Below are positions 2,613 to 45,695 of a DNA stretch of 53,840 bases, piece after piece. Every line of letters starts with the position of its first letter. Position 1 is the first letter of the stretch. This stretch comes from a virus (taxonomy: Duplodnaviria > Caudoviricetes), in the IMG/VR virus record IMGVR_UViG_3300032295_000430, positions 1 through 53,840 of that record; one strand, 5' to 3'. Both the position numbers and the translations under genes were made by a program. The notes under the pieces were generated by a model, which saw nothing but the letters and a program-made list of their open reading frames with translations, was not told the DNA's origin and did no database searches.

Positions 2613-2954
2613 ATGGCAATCTTTTTAGATACGCGTGGCTACTCTGATATAGCGATTGCTGTCTGTGATCGCTGTAAAATGAAGCGCCCGCATGCCGAGC
2701 TTTCTAAAGACCCAAACTTTCCGGGTTTGATGGTGTGTGAGCAGGGTTGCAAGGATCAGTTTGATCCATATAGGTTACCGGCAAGAAAGACTGAAAGAAT
2801 TACGCTTCGATTTCCCCGGCCTGATGTAAGTGTCGCAGTTGACCCAGATGCGCTGTTGACAAATGGCCCGAACAACTATGAGATAACGACCGAAGGCAAT
2901 ACGGACACACCGGAAAACAACGGCAATCTCGACAACATTGCACCGAGTCCATAA
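2613..2954 (+). CDS. conserved virion-module protein with Zn-finger-like CDRC…C…C
   Basis: AVCDRC…VCEQGCKD; RFPRPD. Confidence 0.65.
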   Translation: MAIFLDTRGYSDIAIAVCDRCKMKRPHAELSKDPNFPGLMVCEQGCKDQFDPYRLPARKTERITLRFPRPDVSVAVDPDALLTNGPNNYEITTEGNTDTPENNGNLDNIAPSP

Positions 2955-5578
2955 TGGCACAAGTACAGATTACTCAACTTCCAGCAGCCGGTGCCATAAC
3001 AGGCACCGAGTTAGTGCCTATTGTCCAAAACGGCGTGACCGTCAGGACAACCACTGGCGCAATTTCTGCCTCCCCAAGTCAAACCCAAACCTTCCTGACG
3101 CTAAATCAGGAGCCTTCGCTGCCAAATAGCCGGCGTCTATCCAGTGGGACAGGCATTGGCCTGACGGATGGCGGAGCTCAATCTACCCTCGCAATCACGT
3201 TAAACGGGGCTTCTGGGAGCCTTGAAGTAGCAAGTAATGGGTTGATAGCCAAGACGGCCTCAAACGCCGTCACAGCCCGTTCTATTGCGGTTACGGGCGC
3301 TGGTTTGTCGATCACTGATGGAAATGGAGTTGCTGGCAATCCGACTTTGTCTTTGAGTGGACTGGCGGCTGCATTTGCCAATATTGGCGGCACTGGCATC
3401 GTTGCTGTGCAAAACGGCACCACCGCAGGCGGCATCAGCATTCTTGGCACCACAAATCAAATTAGTGTGGCAAATGGAAACGGAGCCGGCAATCCAACAA
3501 TATCCATTTCAGACAATCCGGTAATTCCCGGTGTTGCTGCAATGACGATACCTTTGGGCTCAAGTGCTCAACAGCCTGTTGGTTCTCCGGGGCAATTTAG
3601 ATTTAATTCCGATACTCAGACGTTTGATGGTTATTCTGCGGGCTCATGGAGGCAATTCTCTTTGGCCGGCGGCGTCACAACTTTTAGTGCTGGATCAACA
3701 GGATTTACCCCCGTTCTGCCAACTTCTGGAAGTGTAACTTTAGGCGGTACTTTAAATACTTCCTCTGGCGGCACTGGTACTAGCGGGCTAACTGGTTATG
3801 TGTATGGTAATGGCGGATCAGCAATGACCGCCTCCTTGACTATTCCGACAACCAGTCTATCTGGCACGATTTCCAATGCGCAGCTTGCCAATAGCTCAAT
3901 CACCATTAACGGGACTCCGGCCAGTCTTGGCGGGTCTGTCACAGTAACGGCAGGAACTAGCAATCCTTTAGTAATGAGCACAGGTCTTACTGGGGGTTTG
4001 TATGACGGATTAACCACGGTCACTATCGCTATAGATTCTACGGTTGCCACGTTAACCGGCACTCAAACTTTAACAAGTAAGTCAATTTCTGGGGCAAGCA
4101 ATACTTTCTCCTCTATCCCAAATTCTGCATTAAATAATAGCTCGGTTTCTTTCAATGGCGTATCCGTTGCACTGGGAGCCTCCGGCACCATTACAGCCGC
4201 CACCACCTCGGCGCTGACCATTGGCACAGGGTTGCAGGGCACGAGCTTTAATGGATCGACGCCGGTTACCATTGCAATTGACTCGACCGTTGCGACCCTG
4301 ACTGGTACTCAGACGCTGACCAACAAGACGATTGATGCGGCCAGCAATACCTTGTTAAACATCCCCAATTCGTCGCTGACCAATAGCTCGGTGACCATTG
4401 GTACTACTGCAATTTCCCTTGGGGCATCCTCTCTGACCTTGGGTGGCCTGACTTCGGTGGCGGTAACGCAAGACCCGACCTCTGCGTTGCAGTTGGCTAC
4501 AAAGCAATATGTTGACTCAGTGGCAGAGGGTTTGCATGTCCACGCCTCTTGCGCGGCAGCGACCACAGGTACTTTGGCGTCGATTACTGGCGGCACTGTT
4601 ACCTATAACAACGGTACTGCCGGGGTAGGTGCGACGCTTACTCTATCAAATGCGCTGACGGTTCTGGATGGATATACCCTGCTAAACGGGGATCGCGTAC
4701 TGGTCAAAAACGAGGCTACGCAGGCCAATAACGGTATCTACACTTGGGCGACAGGCGGTACGGTCTTAACCCGCGCAACGGACTTTGACACCTCAGTTGA
4801 GATTGCCAGCGGTGACTTTACCTTTGTTTCTAATGGTTCTTTGTACGCCAATACAGGCTGGGTGCAGACTCAACCAGTTACAACTATTGGCACTGACGCA
4901 ATTATTTGGCAGCAGTTCTCTGGTTCTGGCACTTATACTGCAGGTACTGGCTTAACCCTGTCAGGTAGTCAGTTCAGCATTACAAATACTGGGGTTACGG
5001 CGGCGTCTTATGGCTCTGCCTCCTCTGTACCTACCTTTACGGTAAATGCTCAAGGTCAATTAACTGTAGCGGCAAACGCTTCAATTGCTATCAATGGCAA
5101 CCAGATCACCTCTGGTACTGTGGGTTCTGCCTACATCAGCGGCTCATATACCGGGATTACGGGCGTTGGCACACTGACGGCTGGTACTTGGACGGCAAGC
5201 ACAATATCAACGGCCTATGGCGGCACAGGGCTTACCAGCTACACCGCTGGCGACATGCTGTATTTCTCGACTGGTACTGCGCTCACAAAGCTTGGTATTG
5301 GAGCCAGCACGTACCTGCTGTCTTCGACGGGAAGCGCCCCATCGTGGACTGACCCGGCAAGCGTGACTGTAGGTACGGCCACAAACGCAACAAATGCAAC
5401 CAATGTTGCAGTGTCGGCATCGAGCGCGAATGCTTCGTTTTACCCAACTTTCGTCAGCGCAACTACGAGCAATTTGCCTATAGCCGTTGACTCTGACCTT
5501 ACTTATAATCCTTCTACTAACACACTGGCGACTGGCACTGTGACTGCCACAACCGGCATATTTGGCGGGACATTCTAA
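2954..5578 (+). CDS. tail fibre / large structural protein
   Basis: 874 aa, G/T/S-rich; VQITQLPAA N-terminus; ATKQYVD and GDRVLVKNE…NGIY motifs; internal repeats. Confidence 0.8.
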   Translation: MAQVQITQLPAAGAITGTELVPIVQNGVTVRTTTGAISASPSQTQTFLTLNQEPSLPNSRRLSSGTGIGLTDGGAQSTLAITLNGASGSLEVASNGLIAKTASNAVTARSIAVTGAGLSITDGNGVAGNPTLSLSGLAAAFANIGGTGIVAVQNGTTAGGISILGTTNQISVANGNGAGNPTISISDNPVIPGVAAMTIPLGSSAQQPVGSPGQFRFNSDTQTFDGYSAGSWRQFSLAGGVTTFSAGSTGFTPVLPTSGSVTLGGTLNTSSGGTGTSGLTGYVYGNGGSAMTASLTIPTTSLSGTISNAQLANSSITINGTPASLGGSVTVTAGTSNPLVMSTGLTGGLYDGLTTVTIAIDSTVATLTGTQTLTSKSISGASNTFSSIPNSALNNSSVSFNGVSVALGASGTITAATTSALTIGTGLQGTSFNGSTPVTIAIDSTVATLTGTQTLTNKTIDAASNTLLNIPNSSLTNSSVTIGTTAISLGASSLTLGGLTSVAVTQDPTSALQLATKQYVDSVAEGLHVHASCAAATTGTLASITGGTVTYNNGTAGVGATLTLSNALTVLDGYTLLNGDRVLVKNEATQANNGIYTWATGGTVLTRATDFDTSVEIASGDFTFVSNGSLYANTGWVQTQPVTTIGTDAIIWQQFSGSGTYTAGTGLTLSGSQFSITNTGVTAASYGSASSVPTFTVNAQGQLTVAANASIAINGNQITSGTVGSAYISGSYTGITGVGTLTAGTWTASTISTAYGGTGLTSYTAGDMLYFSTGTALTKLGIGASTYLLSSTGSAPSWTDPASVTVGTATNATNATNVAVSASSANASFYPTFVSATTSNLPIAVDSDLTYNPSTNTLATGTVTATTGIFGGTF

Positions 5579-14358: not shown

Positions 14359-14643
14359 ATGATCGACTTTATAAAACTATTTAACGCTACAGCAAAAGTC
14401 GCAAAACCGATGTCCCCAGACTTTGATAATGCAAAAAGTCTGGATGATCAACTTCAAGACATAGACGTAGACAGTCTTGATAGTTTGCTCATTGGTTTGT
14501 ATATGTGTGAACTCTACGGGATTCCTGAAGACAAGGGGAAAGAGCTTGTCCCTGTGACAGTCCGCGAGATCCACGACTTTTTGATGCAACACAAGACGAA
14601 AGAGCCGGAGTCCATTGAGGCGGCGATAGAGGCCATCAAATGA
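14359..14643 (+). CDS. acyl carrier protein (ACP)
   Basis: 94 aa, acidic; LQDIDVDSLDSLLIGLYMCELYGIP contains the DSL phosphopantetheinylation Ser (S39) and helix II; TVREIHDFL helix. Confidence 0.85.
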   Translation: MIDFIKLFNATAKVAKPMSPDFDNAKSLDDQLQDIDVDSLDSLLIGLYMCELYGIPEDKGKELVPVTVREIHDFLMQHKTKEPESIEAAIEAIK

Positions 14644-15749
14644 TCTATCTCACTCACTATAGGACGGCGGCTACCAGTAACGTGGAGTTGATGGAGGACG
14701 CAGTCTATCCGCAGCGGGTGCACTGGTTCCCAGAGACTTACGCCAAGGTGAAGATGGGGCTGACGTACCCGCCTCATAAGCTGGCTGAGAAGGTGCTGGA
14801 TCCTGCCCTGCTGAAGATGCTGAGGGAGCAGGAGGTAGGCAAGACGGCCTTTATTCTGGCAAGCGGTAACTCTCACTTTGCCGGGATTAACCAGCGCAAG
14901 TACGACAGCAAGCTGAGCTATGACTACAAGTTTTTGCCACTTACTCTGACTCAGGTGTATGCCGGCAGGGTAGCTCAGCAGTGTGGGGCTCAGGATCATG
15001 TTGTGACGGACGCCAGCGCCTGCGCATCTAGCCTGAAGGCTTTGATGGATGTGAATACGCTGATGAGTCACTACGGGTTTGCACGGGTCATTGTGTTGAC
15101 GGTAGAGGATGGGGTATCGAATGCTGTCCTGCAGTTCTTTGGTGAATCCAAGGCCGTCTTGACGGATGAGGAAGAGAAGACGGGGATCAAGCCGAGTGCC
15201 TTTGACAAGCAAAACCGGGGCTTTTATGTTGGACAGGGAGCCGCTCTTGCCGTCTTTGACAACTGGCTTACCCTTGATAAGACGGGGGATACGCCACTTG
15301 CTCAACTCTGCGGGGCTTATACCGCCTCAGAGGCCAGCACTAATGCAATTGGGCAACTAGAGAACGGTAGTGGCTTCATTAAGGCTATGGAAGGCGTCTT
15401 TGAGTTTTCTACGGTCAAGCCTCAGGATGTCAGAATTGTAAAAACCCATGGTACGGGGACAATTTCTAATAACATTTCGGAGTTAACTGCTTTACAATCT
15501 ACACTTAAAAGTTTCGTTGCCACCTCATACAAGCAGAGAATCGGTCATACGATGGGTGCGAGTGGGCTGCTGGAGACTTTGATGCTCTTGGAGGACATGC
15601 GTTCAGGCGTGATTCCAGAGATTCCGAACCGGACGGAAAGTGATGAAGTATTTTTATCTGAGCCTATCAGCCCGCCACCCGGCGCGGTGCTGAGCCTTGC
15701 AGCGGGGATGGGAAACGTCTACAGCGCAGCAATCTTTAAACCTATGTAG
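14640..15749 (+). CDS. beta-ketoacyl-ACP synthase (FabB/FabF-type condensing enzyme)
   Basis: SACASS (C128), KTHGTGT (H270), SYKQRIGHTMGASG (H303), GFYVGQGAA, SLAAGMG. Confidence 0.92.
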   Translation: MIYLTHYRTAATSNVELMEDAVYPQRVHWFPETYAKVKMGLTYPPHKLAEKVLDPALLKMLREQEVGKTAFILASGNSHFAGINQRKYDSKLSYDYKFLPLTLTQVYAGRVAQQCGAQDHVVTDASACASSLKALMDVNTLMSHYGFARVIVLTVEDGVSNAVLQFFGESKAVLTDEEEKTGIKPSAFDKQNRGFYVGQGAALAVFDNWLTLDKTGDTPLAQLCGAYTASEASTNAIGQLENGSGFIKAMEGVFEFSTVKPQDVRIVKTHGTGTISNNISELTALQSTLKSFVATSYKQRIGHTMGASGLLETLMLLEDMRSGVIPEIPNRTESDEVFLSEPISPPPGAVLSLAAGMGNVYSAAIFKPM

Positions 15750-36839: not shown

Positions 36840-37036
36840 TGCTGGCTTACTGCGACTACATTGCAGCCCTTATACGGGGCAACCTGAAGGCCAATGACGT
36901 AGACAAGCTACTGTCCAGCGTTTCAGCCCCACAGCTTCATCTGGCGGCTTCTGGAGCTTTCCTGAGCACCAAGAAGACCCTCAACGTCGAGGATCGGTAC
37001 GGCAAGAAGTACAAGGTAACAGTGGAAGAAGTGTAA
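36836..37036 (+). CDS. hypothetical protein
   Basis: Coupled; ends KYKVTVEEV. Confidence 0.7.
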   Translation: MMLAYCDYIAALIRGNLKANDVDKLLSSVSAPQLHLAASGAFLSTKKTLNVEDRYGKKYKVTVEEV

Positions 37037-37056
37037 AGCTTGAGTTAAAGTAGTAA

Positions 37057-37382
37057 TGGGGAAAGCGGATGCTGTGACGGCGCGCAGAAAGAGCCACCGG
37101 AAGCCTACGGGCGCACAGACGCAGCGAGTACCCAGCACCAAGACGCATGAGGATTGATCGGTAGGACGGTCTTGCAGGGAGGATAGGAAGCTGATGAGCT
37201 CGTCACTCAAAGGCGACCGAAAGTGGAGATACTGCAGCTACCGATACAGAGTAGGAAAGCAAACTAAGGTTGACCCCGAAGTCCTTCCCTGCCTGTAAAG
37301 CAGTCCTCAGTCGTGTTGGTGTCAGTGAATAGCCGGCAGTGGCATATTGCACACGGGCAATAGGGAATAGCTGTCACCAACA
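37057..37382 (+). ncRNA. structured non-coding RNA cluster, part 1 (loop-E hairpin plus CACCAA/TTGGTG element A)
   Basis: Multiple long helices; see findings. Confidence 0.55.
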
Positions 37383-37406
37383 TTCACCTAATTATGGAGG
37401 GAAGCC

Positions 37407-37553
37407 ATGAAATACCTGATCGCACTTTGGCTGGCAGCTACGGCCACCATGAGCTACGCAGCCTGCACCTACAACAATTACTGTGGCCCCAATGGCTGCG
37501 TGTATTGCACTACGTGCTGCTACGGTGGGAGCTGCAATACCACCTGTAACTGA
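37407..37553 (+). CDS. secreted cysteine-rich mini-protein (not in the ORF track)
   Basis: MKYLIALWLAATATMSYA-ACTYNNYCGPNGCVYCTTCCYGGSCNTTCN; GGAGG RBS; signal peptide plus 8 Cys. Confidence 0.75.
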   Translation: MKYLIALWLAATATMSYAACTYNNYCGPNGCVYCTTCCYGGSCNTTCN

Positions 37554-37566
37554 CATACAATGTCAA

Positions 37567-37756
37567 TGGAGGGGCTGTAGTGCTGGCTTCGGGGACTTTG
37601 GTCAGTTCACCCCGGCACTGCAGCCTGCTCCACCAAGACGCATGACCATTGCTGGGCGCGAACCCGGAAAGCGAACTAACCCAGAACCGGAGCCAAAGAA
37701 CACTAGGTCGCTTTGGTAGGAAGACGGGGAAAGAGTAGTGGTCAGCCGTGTTGGTG
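37567..37756 (+). ncRNA. structured non-coding RNA cluster, part 2 (long hairpin ending CCA plus element B)
   Basis: Second copy of CACCAAGACGCATGA…TCAGNCGTGTTGGTG with compensatory changes. Confidence 0.55.
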
Positions 37757-37833
37757 AAGCTCATCGGAAAGAGCGGTATGGGAAAACACGATAACCCACT
37801 CGTCTGTAGCTGGTTCGACTCCAGCCACCAACA
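37750..37833 (+). ncRNA. tRNA-like RNA lacking a canonical anticodon arm
   Basis: Acceptor GTTGGTG/CACCAAC+A; D-arm GCTC-ATCGGAAA-GAGC; T-arm GCTGG-TTCGACT-CCAGC. Confidence 0.65.
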
Positions 37834-37855
37834 ACCTAACTACAGAGGAAAAATA

Positions 37856-38041
37856 ATGGAAAACAAAGACATTCGCATCACGTTGCAATACAATCTTGAA
37901 GAGATCAATCACCTGCTGACATTACTTGGCGCTTTGCCATTCAGCCAGTCAGCCGCGTTGATTAACAACATTCAAATGCAAGCTATGCCGCAACTACCTA
38001 AAGTTGCCGAAGAGAATCAGGATCAGGCAGAGCAGCAGTAA
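37856..38041 (+). CDS. hypothetical protein
   Basis: ATG 37856, GAGGA RBS. Confidence 0.7.
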   Translation: MENKDIRITLQYNLEEINHLLTLLGALPFSQSAALINNIQMQAMPQLPKVAEENQDQAEQQ

Positions 38042-40823: not shown

Positions 40824-43800
40824 ATGCCTAGCCCAAAAGACATTAAGAACCTACTCAAAGCAACCCAAGGCACGAAGGCCGGCAAGGCAGCGGATCTGGA
40901 GGAGTTGCTGGCGACGCTGCCCAAGGGCACCAAGGCGCAGCAGCTTGAGGCTGAGCTGATGTTCAAGCGGCTGGCTGAAGAGCAGGCGGCACGGTATGCC
41001 GCTCACACGCCACCGACCGAGCAGGGTAATGCCGCGCTGTCTGAGGCCAAGAAGGCGCTGAAAAAGAAGCAGGCTCCTGCCGTCATCATCCCCAGCAAGA
41101 TCTCAAACGTCCAGAAGGCTATCCGCGAAAGCAAGGGGTCGTTCGGTGCTAAGCGTGTGCAGCGGGCTGCTGATGAGATCAAGAACCTTGAAAGGCTGTA
41201 TACCGAAGAGGCGCTAAAAAAAGCGTTCGGCGGCGATAACGCCAAAGCCTTGATGACTATGAACCCGGAGGATTTTGAGAGATTTGCAATTCCGCTGGTT
41301 ATGCAAGAAAAAGGGTGGCCGGGTTCTGGGCCTAGGAAAGAAACCCTTCCAACACGGGAATACATCAATTATTTATCGGGCATTGATGAATTTCATGATG
41401 TCCCATTCCTTGAAATAAATAAACAACGACAAGGCTTGCCTTTAATACCTTTTGTCTCTGGGCATGAGGGGCGTCATCGTAATCGGGCGCTAGCTCAACG
41501 TGATGAGCCTGCTGGCTTAGTTCAATTTCTGCCCCGTGCTGAGTTGCGTGAGCCCTTCCCCCGTAGAGACCAAGAGGAATATCTGGAGGCGCTGAGGAAT
41601 GAACTGGAGATGACTGGCAACATGGTCTTGCCTGAGCGATACCTTGAAGATGGGGATGTCTACATCAAACGCCCAGAGATTAAACTGCCAGACATCTACG
41701 CCGAGGGTGGTGGCGTGCACATGGCCGGTGGTGGCAAAGCACTCAAGGCGCTGAAAGGTGCTGGCAAGGCGGCAGACGCCACGCAGGATGTCCAGTCGAT
41801 AGTGAGTGCCGGCAAGCCACTGACAGCCGCTGAGCGTGCCATGGTGGGCAAGCTTGCTGAGGAATACACCGCTAATCAGCCCGTCACCAGATTGTCTGAG
41901 GCGCTTGGCAACGTAGGCGCTGAGGGCAAGAACCTCCGGGTTACGCAAACCGACCGCACAAGCGCTCGGAACTTGGGTGGTGCCCCGTTCTCCATGATGC
42001 AGAAGGTTGACCCTCGTTACGCACAGGCCAAGGCAACGTGGGGCGTTAAGACGCCGGGTGCGGCCAAGAACATTACCAACCAGTCAGATGCGGATGTCAT
42101 ATGGTCTACCCTGATTGGATCAAAGACACAACACCGGTCTAACGAGCTGATTTTTGACAAGCTGTACAAGGCTTTCCAGAAGTCGGCCAAGGAAGGCAAC
42201 CTAAGCACAGAGTTGCGTACTAAGTTCAATGCGGCACTGGAGCCCATCTTTGGCGAGGGCGCTGACATTCTTGACCCGAAGCTTCGCAAAGAGATTGACA
42301 CGTTTGAGAAGCGGGCAATTGTCGGCAACCTGTTGTTGGGCAAGGACATTGGTGGCGCACAGCGTGGTGGCTCAATCATCCCCGGCATGAAGATCATGGC
42401 CGAGACTACTGAGCCGATGCTCAAAAACGCTGAGACGTTCTCTATCGGCCCACGCTTGTTTACATTGGATCAGGGTGTGATTACCCGCCCCGACCTGCAT
42501 CCTGCGTTCCCTGAGATATTGACGGGCGAGGATCTGAATCAGCTATTCATACCTGTCCCCAATCGTATTGCTCTGCCTACGTTCAATGAAGAGTTCAGGG
42601 CTAGGACAGGGCGCAAGAAGCCGTCATATTACGACCTGACGATGACGCCAGAAGGTGACCCGTACCCAACGCAGTTCGTTGACGAAGATTACCTAAACTT
42701 CCTCCAGAAGGAAGGCTACGCCGATGGCGGTGCTGTACACATGGCAGGCGGTGGTGATGCGGGCGAGGTGTCTGGCGATATGTTCAAACCTAAGCCGCTG
42801 ACAATTCCCTCCCCGCTGACTGACATGGTTGATGCAATCAGGCGGCAGTTCGGCAAAGAGAAGCGCTCGATGAGCAAGCCCGGAGCCGCGACAGACGTTC
42901 TGCTGCGTGGCCCCGTTGCGTTTGCTGCTGGCACGCCGATGGATCTGGTGGAGATGGCTGGTCAAGGTATTGACTATCTGCAGACAAGAATCCCCGGCCT
43001 GCGCACAAACGCTTCCGTAATGGATGAGCCAAGGTCTGTAGTGGACAAGCGCACACCAGACACAAATTACGAACCAAGGTTTAAATTTGCCCCAGAGCCA
43101 AAGGTGCAACCTAGCCTTCCGTTTGATGCAAGCCGATACATTCAGACAAGCGACCCGAAGCTGCGTGCTTTTATAAATAAGCGTCAAAAAGAAATAAATT
43201 CTGGCCTGCAACTTCCAATCGTTGAAGAGGCTCGGATGCCTTACGGTACAGAAGACTTCCAAAACAAGCTGCGTCAATCCGGCCTGACCACGGATGAAGA
43301 GCGCCCGCTGTTTGAGATTGGCACTGCGATTGCGTCCCCGTTTGCCGCACAGAAGGCGCTGAAGTACGGCAAGGCAGGCGCTCAGGCGCTGGCACCTACG
43401 TTCTCAGACATCTTGGAGACGCAGCTTCAAAACGTGACTGCCCCGATGCGTATGAGCATAGTTCCTGAAGGCGGCACTGTTGGCGGCAAGCTCAAAGCCC
43501 CGGCTAATGACATTGGCTTCTACAACCCCGTTGAGAAGGCGGCACTGAATGTGCAGCGTAAGAAGGGGCCGGGATCTGCGTTTGTATCCGACCTGAAGAA
43601 ACAGCCGGGTGTGAATGACGAGCGCCTTGCTGAGCTTGGCCTGAGCGACCTAGCATCCCGTCCTAATGTGACGAGGGAAGAGGTGCTGGCCGCTGCTCAG
43701 CAGAACCGCATACCGTTGCGTGAGACTGTCCTTAAAGAGGGTAAGGAGAGTCTGGAAGAGCTTAGCGACAACATATATCAGCTCAAAGATGACATGTCCT

Positions 43801-45695
43801 ACATGGACAACGACAGCCGGGAGTGGGCTGAGGCTGACCGTACTTTGACAAGGCTGCAGAAAGAATATGAGGCAGAGTCTCAAGCTAAGCGGGCTATGTT
43901 CGGGCCTAAGACTCATGCCGACTACAACATGCCCGGTGGTCAGAACTACCGTGAGATTCGTGTTGCGTTGCCTGCCGTAGAAAAGCCTCAATACTTTATT
44001 GCGTACAAAGACGGCAGCACCATGGGCACGGGGTTTGCCAGCAAGGCTGATGCAGAGGCTGAGCTTGCGGACTTGTTTGGCAGCAGGCCAGATCTTGAAA
44101 TTCGGCAAGGTAGTGGTAGCCGATCAATGACGGCAAAAAATGAAGAAAACTTCATGAACTCAACCCACCATGGTGATGAGCCCAACGTACTGTTCCACCT
44201 TCGCGTAGCTGATCACACTGACGTTGAGGGCAAGAAGGGTTTGTTGATTGATGAGTTGCAGTCTGACTGGCATCAACAGGGTAGGGAAAAGGGATATAAA
44301 CAAAATGCAGAGAAGGATTACAACAGCTATTTTGAGTCTTTGGGTGATCGTTTTATTGCTGAGCAAAAACAACAAAACATAAAAGCTGGGATGACCCCAA
44401 CAGATGCAGAATATTACGCCACAGAAATGTACTCAAGTTTAGCTCAGAGAGAAGGCCATCGTGGAATTGCTCGTGCACTGGGTGAGGAAGACAAACTGGT
44501 TGAGCTATCCAATCAATATAAACGAGACATAAACGCTTTACCTGACGCCCCTTTCAAAGACAACTGGTATCAGCTTGGCCTGAAGCGTGCAATCAAAGAG
44601 GCCGCAGACAGCGGCAAAGAGCGCGTGTACCTGACTACGGGGCAGAGGCAGGCTGATCGGTATGATTTGAGTAAACAGGTTAACCAAATTGATGTTGTAC
44701 CAAGAACGGATGCTGCAACAGGAGAGCAAACAAAAAGCATTGGGTTAAATCTTACTAACGGTGATTTTTATCGACTGGGCGTAGATAAAAATGGAATTGT
44801 GGACAATGTCAGCAATCAATCAATTTCCAATTTAAAAGGCAAACCTCTTGCAGAAGTTGTTGGAAAAGATGTTGCAAAGAAAATTTTGGAAGAGAATGCA
44901 CAAGTCTTGTCCGGCCTCGACCTCAAAGTCGGTGGCGAAGGTATGCGCCAGTATTACGACAAGAACTACCTGAACTTCTTGAAGAAGTACGCCAAGCAGT
45001 TTGGTGCGACGGTGGGAGAAACTACACTTCCGGGTGCGGCTAAAACACGCAATCAGTTGTCCGCTAGTGATATGCATAACATGATGGACAACCCTGAATT
45101 TAAAAAAATTCTTGATGAAGAGTTTATGAAGTTGGCCGACAAGCCTTTAATTACTGGAAAAATTGAACCGCAGGGCAATAATGAATTCAAAATAATGTGG
45201 AGTGATGGATCTTTTTCTGGTGGTTACAGCGCAGAAGGCGCAAGAGAAAGACTCGCCGTAGGCCGCAATTTAAAGAATGAAGAAGGCCAAGCATGGAACG
45301 CCGCATTAAAGCGGTTTGGTGGTGAGAAGGTGTACTACATCGACATCACACCAAAGATGCGCGAGTCTGCCGCCAAAGGCCAATCGTACAAAGATGGTGG
45401 CGCAGTAGCCATGGCCGAAGGCGGTCAACTGACCTTTGCCAAAGCCAACCAACTTCTGCAGCAGTATGTCGCCAATATGGCTAATGATGGCGCTGTACAC
45501 ATGGCTGAGGGTGGCGCTGTGGACTACGAGTCCCGCTTTAATGAGATGCTGCAGAAGCATGTGCAGGGCATGGCAGAGGGCGGCGAAGTGAATACCTATG
45601 ATTCAGACCCCGACATGTCTGACGGTGGTCGGTTTATTCAAGCGCCTGCCTTTGCTGATGGCGGCGCAGTGAAATCAATCTGGACAGTTAATTAA
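40824..45695 (+). CDS. 1623-aa multidomain (polyvalent-type) protein segmented by GG tags
   Basis: GHEGRHR (ParB-like) in segment 1; IDELQSDWHQQGR…PDAPFK in segment 3; AxGG-AVHMAGGG linkers. Confidence 0.75.
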   Translation: MPSPKDIKNLLKATQGTKAGKAADLEELLATLPKGTKAQQLEAELMFKRLAEEQAARYAAHTPPTEQGNAALSEAKKALKKKQAPAVIIPSKISNVQKAIRESKGSFGAKRVQRAADEIKNLERLYTEEALKKAFGGDNAKALMTMNPEDFERFAIPLVMQEKGWPGSGPRKETLPTREYINYLSGIDEFHDVPFLEINKQRQGLPLIPFVSGHEGRHRNRALAQRDEPAGLVQFLPRAELREPFPRRDQEEYLEALRNELEMTGNMVLPERYLEDGDVYIKRPEIKLPDIYAEGGGVHMAGGGKALKALKGAGKAADATQDVQSIVSAGKPLTAAERAMVGKLAEEYTANQPVTRLSEALGNVGAEGKNLRVTQTDRTSARNLGGAPFSMMQKVDPRYAQAKATWGVKTPGAAKNITNQSDADVIWSTLIGSKTQHRSNELIFDKLYKAFQKSAKEGNLSTELRTKFNAALEPIFGEGADILDPKLRKEIDTFEKRAIVGNLLLGKDIGGAQRGGSIIPGMKIMAETTEPMLKNAETFSIGPRLFTLDQGVITRPDLHPAFPEILTGEDLNQLFIPVPNRIALPTFNEEFRARTGRKKPSYYDLTMTPEGDPYPTQFVDEDYLNFLQKEGYADGGAVHMAGGGDAGEVSGDMFKPKPLTIPSPLTDMVDAIRRQFGKEKRSMSKPGAATDVLLRGPVAFAAGTPMDLVEMAGQGIDYLQTRIPGLRTNASVMDEPRSVVDKRTPDTNYEPRFKFAPEPKVQPSLPFDASRYIQTSDPKLRAFINKRQKEINSGLQLPIVEEARMPYGTEDFQNKLRQSGLTTDEERPLFEIGTAIASPFAAQKALKYGKAGAQALAPTFSDILETQLQNVTAPMRMSIVPEGGTVGGKLKAPANDIGFYNPVEKAALNVQRKKGPGSAFVSDLKKQPGVNDERLAELGLSDLASRPNVTREEVLAAAQQNRIPLRETVLKEGKESLEELSDNIYQLKDDMSYMDNDSREWAEADRTLTRLQKEYEAESQAKRAMFGPKTHADYNMPGGQNYREIRVALPAVEKPQYFIAYKDGSTMGTGFASKADAEAELADLFGSRPDLEIRQGSGSRSMTAKNEENFMNSTHHGDEPNVLFHLRVADHTDVEGKKGLLIDELQSDWHQQGREKGYKQNAEKDYNSYFESLGDRFIAEQKQQNIKAGMTPTDAEYYATEMYSSLAQREGHRGIARALGEEDKLVELSNQYKRDINALPDAPFKDNWYQLGLKRAIKEAADSGKERVYLTTGQRQADRYDLSKQVNQIDVVPRTDAATGEQTKSIGLNLTNGDFYRLGVDKNGIVDNVSNQSISNLKGKPLAEVVGKDVAKKILEENAQVLSGLDLKVGGEGMRQYYDKNYLNFLKKYAKQFGATVGETTLPGAAKTRNQLSASDMHNMMDNPEFKKILDEEFMKLADKPLITGKIEPQGNNEFKIMWSDGSFSGGYSAEGARERLAVGRNLKNEEGQAWNAALKRFGGEKVYYIDITPKMRESAAKGQSYKDGGAVAMAEGGQLTFAKANQLLQQYVANMANDGAVHMAEGGAVDYESRFNEMLQKHVQGMAEGGEVNTYDSDPDMSDGGRFIQAPAFADGGAVKSIWTVN

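Follow-up and report, generated by a model that had tools for sequence, protein, structure and literature searches.

Structured RNA stalks with exchangeable cargo alternate with tRNAs and tRNA-like units in arrays of uncultured phages

What is made from positions 37057 to 37833 of the viral record IMGVR_UViG_3300032295_000430 (Caudoviricetes), a stretch that lies between small open reading frames (ORFs) of unknown function and the genes for the small and large terminase subunits (38576 and 39370)? The record, 53,840 nucleotides (nt) long and 96% complete, was analyzed as a whole and is called the window below. A sequence-only reading had described two elements on its plus strand, at 37136-37321 and 37631-37756, as parts of an array of structured RNAs in which similar arms enclose different interiors. 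We find that these arms form a stalk, here called the clamp, that is a real, strand-specific structured element, and, judging from related contigs, arrays of clamps with exchangeable cargo recur among relatives. The reading we favor, with about even confidence, is that 37057-37833 is a co-transcribed modular array of noncoding RNA that host nucleases for transfer RNA (tRNA) processing would cut into stable RNAs, the clamp serving as a bistable spacer.

All sequences attributed to the two elements were found where they had been placed. The clamp is a 19-pair stalk, CCAAGACGCAUGAGGAUUG on the 5' side and CAGUCCUCAGYCGUGUUGG on the 3' side, closed around exchangeable cargo and carrying fixed noncanonical G.G, C.Y, A.G, and U.G oppositions; its geometry comprises 19 positions, 16 of them paired, with a 2x2 internal loop at positions 11 and 12. 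In the first clamp unit, E1 (37136-37321), the stalk joins 37138-37156 to 37301-37319 around 144 nt of cargo (37157-37300). In the second, E2 (37631-37756), which belongs to a CCAUUGCUGG subtype, it joins 37633-37653 to 37734-37754 around a conserved multistem cargo. The inner stems differ between the two yet pair in both (GGAUUG/CAGUCC and CCAUUGCU/AGUAGUGG, G.U pairs included), as had been claimed. None of 200 shuffles was as stable as E1 (fold z = -3.98), and none of 200 as stable as E2 (z = -3.48). Within the window, the 15-nt 5' arm occurs exactly only at 37136 and 37631, with imperfect complements at 37307-37321 and 37742-37756; at up to 3 mismatches, the arm search returned 6 matches against 1.46 expected, a number reached by 0 of 100 shuffles.

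Viral contigs were scanned with the exact 15-nt 5' arm and with the 19-nt 3' arm, and all totals from these scans are lower bounds. The 5' arm was found in at least 117 loci; among those listed, 60 (45 of them distinct) have a 3' arm within 420 nt, and the other 57 are chance 15-mer matches. The 3'-arm scan gave at least 120 loci with 126 distinct elements, one of which (11 of 16 pairs) was dropped, leaving 125. Combined, the scans yield at least 160 distinct clamps of 66 to 300 nt (median, 95.5 nt) in at least 155 viral loci, and modules differ in order or number between close relatives (L117 and L207). A scan of bacteria, with one genome per species, gave five exact matches, two of which are real and lie on contigs of metagenome-assembled genomes (MAGs) labeled Rhodocyclaceae and Burkholderiales; arm matches in Vibrio, Roseburia, and Desulfovibrionaceae were rejected as chance, the 3' arm being absent. 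The clamp model R1 matched 3 of 151 genomes from the order of MAG G002, one being G002 itself, which is only a hint at hosts.

Is the stalk maintained by pairing? The anchored arm of each scan is invariant by construction, so each set is informative on the opposite arm only; that nonanchor arm is nearly invariant in both scans. The 5'-anchored set holds 60 distinct clamps, L120 having been dropped because its 3' arm was mislocated. Positions 3 to 6, 8 to 10, and 13 to 21 are paired in all 60 clamps listed, position 7 is G.G (53 clamps) or C-G (7 clamps), and position 11 is C.C or C.U. Among the matches listed, A.G at position 12 is present in 59 of 60 clamps of the 5'-anchored set and 125 of 125 of the 3'-anchored set, and U.G at position 19 in 58 of 60 and 121 of 125, respectively. 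Of the 125 clamps listed in the 3'-anchored set, 113 form all 16 stalk pairs and 12 form 15. At positions 3 and 4 of the free 5' arm in that set, C-G occurs in 100 clamps and U.G in 22 or 25, with 3 nonpairing cells. Such variation, almost confined to C and U opposite G's, is a signature of RNA pairing rather than of a DNA repeat. In two diverged chromosomal copies, a lower-stem A:U pair has become U:A, and in one of them the downstream partner described below has altered in step.

Compensatory change was assessed in an alignment (A2) of 48 of the 61 distinct units, from which five GGAUUG-subtype units (four near-duplicates and L044, with a deviating 3' arm), L120, and seven near-identical E2-type rows were left out. 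All 768 of its 768 stalk cells are paired, and every sequence has all 16 stalk pairs of E1. Both sides have changed at five pairs (36 cells), a result reached by 0 of 500 shuffles, while slid controls were all less than 47% paired. The pairing is also specific to one strand: model R1 scores E1 at 64.1 bits on the plus strand versus 25.1 on the minus strand and E2 at 65.1 versus 15.6, and in 14 other loci the sense strand scores 44 to 67 bits versus 19 to 33 for the antisense strand. The number of viral loci, the pairing counts, and the strand scores together bear out the proposal of structured RNA arrays with exchangeable cargo, and the homologue search of phage contigs that had been suggested as a check came out in its favor.

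A second helix competes with the stalk. In many loci clamps alternate with units, which we call A-units, that are closed by UGUUGGNN ... NNCCAACA, and the next clamp begins one base on. Of 148 distinct contexts, 86 have a downstream partner forming 8 pairs no more than 200 nt away; a control in which the strand was read in reverse gave 3 of 148. The two variable positions of this helix covary (UG/CA in 43, then UA/UA, UU/AA, GU/AC, AA/UU, CG/CG, and wobble forms). The A-unit that follows E1 (37314-37382) is an inverted repeat (fold z = -3.39) closed by UGUUGGUG at 37314-37321, in common with the E1 3' arm, and by CACCAACA at 37375-37382; its body was also found in L001, L006, L093, L097, and L207. 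Two partners are available to the clamp 3' arm UGUUGGUG: the 5' arm of the same clamp, where the ACCA tail of the upstream unit lies, and the downstream CACCAACA, which recurs at 37826-37833 as the sequence-only reading had noticed. Because six of the eight UGUUGGNN bases of the A-unit helix also belong to the clamp lower stem, the two helices are mutually exclusive, and the earlier idea of exclusive folds gains from the covariation of both across the family. The substitution patterns indicate that stalk and A-unit helix are both under selection for pairing; the alternative folds may serve as a switch.

The neighbors of the clamps tie them to tRNA genes. Upstream stands a tRNA, a tRNA-like RNA, or a hairpin, usually ending in A-CCA, and downstream a tRNA or an A-unit. 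Among the matches listed from the 3'-arm scan, tRNAs occur in 15 of 121 loci. tRNA-Tyr, tRNA-Gly, and tRNA-Met overlap the clamp start by their CCA, and a tRNA-Leu in L086 is joined likewise; L074 has the order tRNA-Tyr, clamp, tRNA-Gly, and L164 the order clamp, tRNA-Gly, clamp. Of 61 distinct upstream contexts, 34 have a predicted helix whose end directly abuts A-CCA. Like the spacers of tRNA operons, which are processed by RNase P, RNase E, and exonucleases, clamps sit exactly between tRNAs or tRNA-like units, from the encoded CCA to the 5' end of the next unit. Since real tRNAs replace the hairpins in some relatives, the gene order makes clamps best seen as spacers of a tRNA-operon-like transcript.

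In the window, the upstream partner of E2 is a GGAG...CUCC hairpin followed by A-CCA (37568-37635); the final five bases of this unit (37631-37635), its closing C and A-CCA, double as the opening five of the E2 5' arm. The hairpin proper (37568-37631; z = -4.81) ends its helix exactly before A-CCA, and the same hairpin is present in L117. The earlier suggestion that the 5' CACCA doubles as the CCA-like end of an upstream hairpin therefore holds for E2; it is weak for E1 and is not universal in relatives. The unit ahead of E1 (37057-37134) has a conserved stalk of a second type, GGGGAAAGCGGAUGC ... GCAGCGAGUACCC, around a variable interior and is followed by G-CACCA. It is the weak part of the array, because alone it folds no better than shuffles (z = -0.25); its helix stops 2 nt short of the E1 arm. 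Its end sequences occur with other interiors in L015, L002, L004, L038, L063/L092, and L207. The second stalk type (GAAAGCGGAUGC ... GCAGCGAGUAC) was seen to hold variable interiors at A-unit positions in window 37057-37134, L002, L004, L015, L027, L038, L063, L092, and L207.

The last unit (37749-37833) had been read as having a tRNA-like acceptor stem. This likeness stood in part. The fold and the Rfam alignment show an 8-pair acceptor-like helix (with the E2 3' arm as its 5' strand), a D-arm-like hairpin, and a canonical T-arm-like hairpin with a UUCGANU-type loop; a script also finds the T-arm motif, with no gap to the 3' strand. A regular anticodon arm (5 pairs, 7-nt loop) is missing from the fold of 37749-37833, where 34 nt separate the D and T stems, and the Rfam alignment skips 26 nt at this place. 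The unit scores 25 bits on the Rfam tRNA-Sec family (E = 0.024), below the gathering score of 47, and ARAGORN made no call at 37749-37833. Its one tRNA in the window lies elsewhere, a tRNA-Leu(CAA) at 3230-3300 inside an 874-amino-acid ORF (2954-5578), and is probably a false call because Rfam reports no tRNA there at gathering level. A near-identical copy of the 37749-37833 unit is present in L034. The stretch that takes the place of the anticodon arm (37774-37808) is almost letter-identical in L034, whereas the two copies differ in their D- and T-arms; judged by eye, a small pseudoknot is possible in this stretch, with UGGG/CCCA crossing ACGA/UCGU.

How unrelated are the cargoes? In the GGAUUG subtype, to which most clamps belong, cargo is unrelated between phage lineages. 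The CCAUUGCUGG subtype, as in E2, instead has a conserved interior of ~86 nt with its own multistem fold, and in an alignment of all 15 distinct E2-type copies, 6 of the 34 predicted pairs show compensatory changes. The cargoes of E1 and E2 share the 14-nt GGAAAGCRAACUAA (37254-37267 and 37666-37679), so they are not wholly unrelated, and the earlier description of their cargo as unrelated needs this correction. A scripted search found T-arm motifs in 9 of 146 cargoes and in 9 of 86 A-units, versus 0.2 expected; reading by eye found no T-arm motif in the E1 and E2 cargoes. In a cargo family present in L055, L060, and the second clamp of L117, we noted by eye a T-arm together with an acceptor-like helix of 4 to 5 pairs (UGGGC/GCCCA) and a crossing CUUGA/UCAAG helix, possibly a pseudoknotted tRNA mimic carried on the stalk.

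When 58 cargoes were compared with their own 1.5-kilobase (kb) flanks, the longest exact complementarities had the same distribution as with unrelated loci, with a mode of 8 in both. Complementarity of 11 nt or more was confined to L117 (13 nt downstream), L002 (13 nt upstream), and a second L117 cargo (11 nt upstream). On the minus strand of L117, the 13-nt exact complementarity joins the conserved AACCGGAAAGCC region of an E2-type cargo to the following unit, and L075 has a 9-nt version in the same place; it may be an interdomain contact or a third alternative fold.

Candidate ribozymes were also considered. By eye, the E1 cargo has a hammerhead-like CUGAUGA...GAAA, rejected for lack of the A:U pair and of the H nucleotide at the would-be cleavage site, and a hepatitis delta virus (HDV)-like fold of the clamp was rejected on topology. 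On the minus strand of L086 (1615-1662), a long unit with a clamp on either side contains a type I hammerhead look-alike with the full conserved core, which reaches 19.9 bits (E = 0.028) against a gathering score of 34. Self-cleavage by such a module would suit a processing theme.

How might such a transcript be used? If the array is processed in the manner of a tRNA operon, the clamp would fold first during transcription, making the spacer double-stranded and masking the neighboring ends. Once the downstream strand had been made, the acceptor-like helix could form and present a substrate to RNase P, which would cut at the 5' end of that helix or of a tRNA. The remaining stalk of ~20 pairs with its central 2x2 loop would be cut by a double-strand-specific or other endonuclease, and trimming would shorten the upstream 3' end to CCA. 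Separate stable RNAs would result, some of them tRNA-like and others cargo RNAs borne on stalks, and our leading guess for their role is tRNA mimicry, as decoy or sponge.

Two kinds of known systems lend this scheme its parts. RNase P is reported to separate polycistronic tRNA transcripts in Escherichia coli, and the proposed trimming to CCA is in line with the E. coli model (PMC2190699, PMC4176162). Cleavage just after CCA combined with RNase P action at each 5' end, as in that model, fits the clamp layout (PMC2190699, PMC4176162). The clamp also has the ~20-pair helix and central loop of an RNase III signal of the phage T7 type, a likeness of geometry only, and like the T7 signals, which sit between cistrons of a long phage transcript, it stands between units. 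In those signals and in rRNA (ribosomal RNA) processing stalks, a helix of about two turns flanks the released RNA and has a central internal loop and a variable distal part. Unlike an RNase III signal, the clamp has conservation and fixed mismatches in excess of need, and its lower stem also supplies the next unit with an acceptor-like strand. To our knowledge, ordinary tRNA spacers are not 19-pair stalks conserved across many genomes with exchangeable structured cargo.

Several observations weigh against this scheme. No clean 8-pair downstream partner was found for 62 of 148 clamp contexts, and some clamps stop at a terminator or lead directly into a ribosome-binding site (RBS). At minimum energy, 37040-37850 folds with the clamps complete, and the acceptor-like helices do not form. 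Of the 125 free 5' arms listed, 46 (~37%) read UCA or CUA, which keeps the pairing and loses the CCA, so a tRNA-type 3' end is not the general rule. A promoter and terminator scan of the window array gave nothing above shuffles. Host RNase III and RNase P have loose specificity, and the clamp is far more conserved than they require. Finally, contigs from RNA libraries run across the junctions and cannot show RNA ends. Contigs of four sequencing runs were compared with the array, and neither their ends nor stretches without cover carry weight. Contigs from two RNA libraries span the hairpin-to-E2 junction of a relative (37571-37690), and another contig covers 37765-37833 with 0 differences and continues into a further clamp; as RNA libraries may contain DNA, these contigs lend weak support to transcription of the array and none to processing. 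Two runs labeled METAGENOMIC RNA-Seq, probably DNA, yielded contigs with E1-type arms around other cargoes.

The extreme degree to which the stalk is conserved speaks for a further, sequence-specific partner and so keeps alive a different account, to which we assign a low but appreciable probability. Here the clamp would be a sequence-specific protein-binding handle and each unit a small ribonucleoprotein (RNP) resembling those of Y RNAs, with the stalk bound by a conserved protein of host or phage, the cargo or tRNA-like unit acting as decoy, tether, or sponge (for instance against tRNA-recognizing factors), and any processing being secondary. Fixed noncanonical positions are typical of protein recognition sites, and the near-invariant nonanchor arm, the G.G or C-G at position 7, the C.Y at position 11, and the fixed A.G and U.G would all fit such a site, as would the T-arms in some cargoes. 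Y RNAs likewise have a long stem to which both ends contribute and a loop module that varies or resembles tRNA; they occur as tandem paralogues and are co-transcribed with tRNAs (PMC4201824). YrlA RNAs are characterized by a Ro60 (TROVE) gene within ~4 kb on the same strand, the motif GNCGAAN0-1G near the 5' end, and conserved central hairpins that resemble T- and D-arms (PMC4201824). The clamp 5' arm, GACGCAUG, is one specified position off that motif (PMC4201824), although by our estimate a one-mismatch match is expected by chance ~0.1 times over the arm. Unlike YrlA, the clamp has no nearby Ro60, carries GACGCAUG in place of the motif, has a T-arm in only 9 of 146 cargoes, and has no Rfam match. 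No TROVE/Ro60 gene was found in the phage record or in MAGs G001 and G002 (both incomplete), and a link to an RtcB gene was sought with no such gene found. Clustering of proteins within 6 kb of 158 loci revealed no family common to the array neighborhoods, and no Rfam family, Y RNA types included, matched at E values up to 10 in the window or up to 1 in seven relative loci.

A bolder version of this protein-centered account seems to us somewhat less probable again. In it, phages would possess an RNP or RNA-display system of a new class, with the clamp as its universal handle: one conserved factor of host or phage would bind the stalk with its G.G, C.Y, A.G, and U.G signature, cargo and tRNA-like modules would be traded by recombination at shared junctions, and the displayed RNAs, as decoys or sponges, would engage host factors that recognize tRNA ends or elbows, such as tRNA-targeting defense nucleases and CCA-modifying toxins, with the bistable junction timing the exposure of ACCA.

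Two mutually exclusive helices are the usual anatomy of an RNA switch, and this anatomy counts for another explanation, in which the array is a cis-acting leader or intercistronic element. Its alternative folds would control or stabilize the flanking mRNAs (terS-terL, a small helix-turn-helix [HTH] gene, or a 48-amino-acid peptide gene) as an attenuator, antitermination element, or stabilizing hairpin, and its cargo would drift freely. The gene context offers some encouragement. The array is co-oriented with neighboring ORFs and tRNAs, and in many loci the last A-unit ends 10 to 25 nt ahead of an RBS. Within 6 kb of 158 loci, the commonest neighbors are the terminase large subunit (in 56), the small subunit (in 41, at a median of 159 nt downstream), and a small HTH ORF. 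The HTH ORF follows at a median of 81 to 85 nt, in 23 of 62 loci in one count and in 25 of 158 in the other; the window array also has no promoter or terminator of its own. Against this, clamps stand between bona fide tRNAs with no ORF involved in L074 and L164. Some arrays appear to have their own promoter and terminator and resemble independent noncoding RNA genes: by eye, L004 has an extended -10 box right before a clamp, L016 has promoter, clamp, and terminator hairpin in order, and the arrays of L004, L016, L048, and L071 appear to be so equipped. Cargo families are conserved and structured, as in the E2 type with its 6 covarying pairs, and neither alternative fold is a terminator, there being no U tract. 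We regard a cis-acting role as improbable.

Imperfect inverted repeats with fixed mismatches that flank hypervariable interiors of 24 to ~260 nt, in arrays whose modules are gained, lost, and reordered between relatives, could also point to a DNA-level element, either a mobile element of the miniature inverted-repeat kind or a recombination site like attC that folds as single-stranded DNA, with repeats kept alike by a transposase or recombinase and with captured cargo; repeats bound by one protein would covary too. Integron attC sites, arranged in cassette arrays, likewise form imperfect palindromes in which the ends are conserved, the center varies, and certain bases are always unpaired. The variation in the clamp, however, has the asymmetry of RNA, with C-to-U change opposite G in 46 cells at positions 3 and 4 versus 3 nonpairing cells and with U.G kept at position 19, and the complementary strand scores 30 to 50 bits lower. 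Unlike attC, the clamp folds on the sense strand and tolerates G.U, and its boxes do not, by eye, fit the attC R''/R' consensus. Clamps are always co-oriented with tRNAs and ORFs and are joined base for base to tRNA CCA ends. Within 6 kb, no integrase, transposase, or recombinase was seen among the 14 commonest neighbor clusters, which were named by eye and not by profile. A DNA-level origin is accordingly very unlikely in our estimate.

Equally slight is the chance that cargoes or A-units serve in antisense immunity like the phage P1 C4 and P4 CI RNAs, which RNase P processes from an operon leader and which pair with a downstream part of their own transcript. It is a notion that the hypervariable interiors (as heteroimmunity), the tRNA-like ends suited to RNase P, and the position in early-operon leaders starting with a small HTH gene might invite, since the 58 cargoes have no more complementarity to their own 1.5-kb flanks than to unrelated flanks and no Rfam family, C4 included, matched at E values up to 10. 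Antisense immunity, a DNA-level element, and the known ribozymes were thus tested and found wanting.

Has the element been described before? The Rfam scan proposed earlier as a check for a known family returned no match to the array at gathering level in the window; at E values up to 10, regions 36900-38000 and 37130-37330 gave noise only, as did seven relative loci at E values up to 1. In those two regions, no C4 family and no ribozyme family (hammerhead, HDV-like, hatchet, pistol, or twister) was reported. In BLAST searches against deposited phage genomes, the array region had no match, and E2 plus the tRNA-like unit had only T-arm-sized matches. The 66-nt clamp gave one real BLAST match, to an unannotated stretch of MW202484.1 (uncultured virus, spring water), and a match to Mycobacterium phage Barnyard that was rejected as chance. 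BLAST of 5,426 E. coli genomes did not find the clamp, and only the tRNA parts of L074 matched. The clamp was not found described in the literature on YrlA and phages, theta ribozymes, phage tRNA-like spacers and operon processing, viral structured RNAs, or tRNA-like decoys. A catalogue from IMG/VR contains 8,495 unnamed candidate structured RNAs (PMC10690425), and the clamp may be listed there without name or function.

Other phage RNAs beside tRNA genes offer partial parallels. HDV-like theta ribozymes lie downstream of phage tRNAs (PMC10879173), and the clamp resembles them as a conserved structured RNA beside tRNA genes in uncultured phages that could bear on tRNA maturation. Unlike them, the clamp is a plain nested stalk with the partner strand at the far 3' end, and the cargo, which occupies the place of the HDV P1 partner, is unconserved. 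The non-tRNA small RNAs known as species 1 and 2 of the phage T4 tRNA cluster, P1 C4, and P4 CI are tRNA-shaped or co-transcribed with tRNAs and are matured by tRNA enzymes. The array resembles them neither in sequence nor by Rfam, its cargoes gave a negative result in the antisense test, and those RNAs lack a shared stalk with exchangeable cargo.

Among the remaining features of the locus, a 48-amino-acid ORF (37407-37553, plus strand) lies between the two halves of the array and encodes a cysteine-rich peptide with a hydrophobic N-terminal leader. Eight cysteines fall within its last 29 residues. It has no PHROG match, has relatives in 11 other array-bearing loci (43 to 96% identity by tblastn), with two tandem copies in L139, and could specify a secreted disulfide-rich peptide. 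For the flanking ORFs, PHROGs and Pfam searches returned nothing beyond the small terminase subunit and families without a known function. Farther away, a 369-amino-acid ORF (14640-15749) has matches to both beta-ketoacyl synthase halves (Pfam PF00109, E = 1.6e-09; PF02801, E = 3.4e-16), which is unusual in a phage, and a 1,623-amino-acid ORF (40824-45695) directly after the large terminase gene has, like seven other large ORFs, no Pfam match at E values up to 0.001.

If the array is indeed cut into stable RNAs, uncultured phages hold a natural modular system that makes many small RNAs per transcript, in which a fixed stalk, tRNA-like punctuation, and swappable cargo are combined much as in engineered tRNA-flanked RNA arrays. 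It would be a large, well-supported addition to the few structured RNAs known from phages. With at least 160 copies, covariation in two competing helices, and defined boundaries, the family offers a substrate for studies of RNA processing, co-transcriptional fold switching, and tRNA mimicry, and its fixed noncanonical positions allow a direct test for a binding partner.

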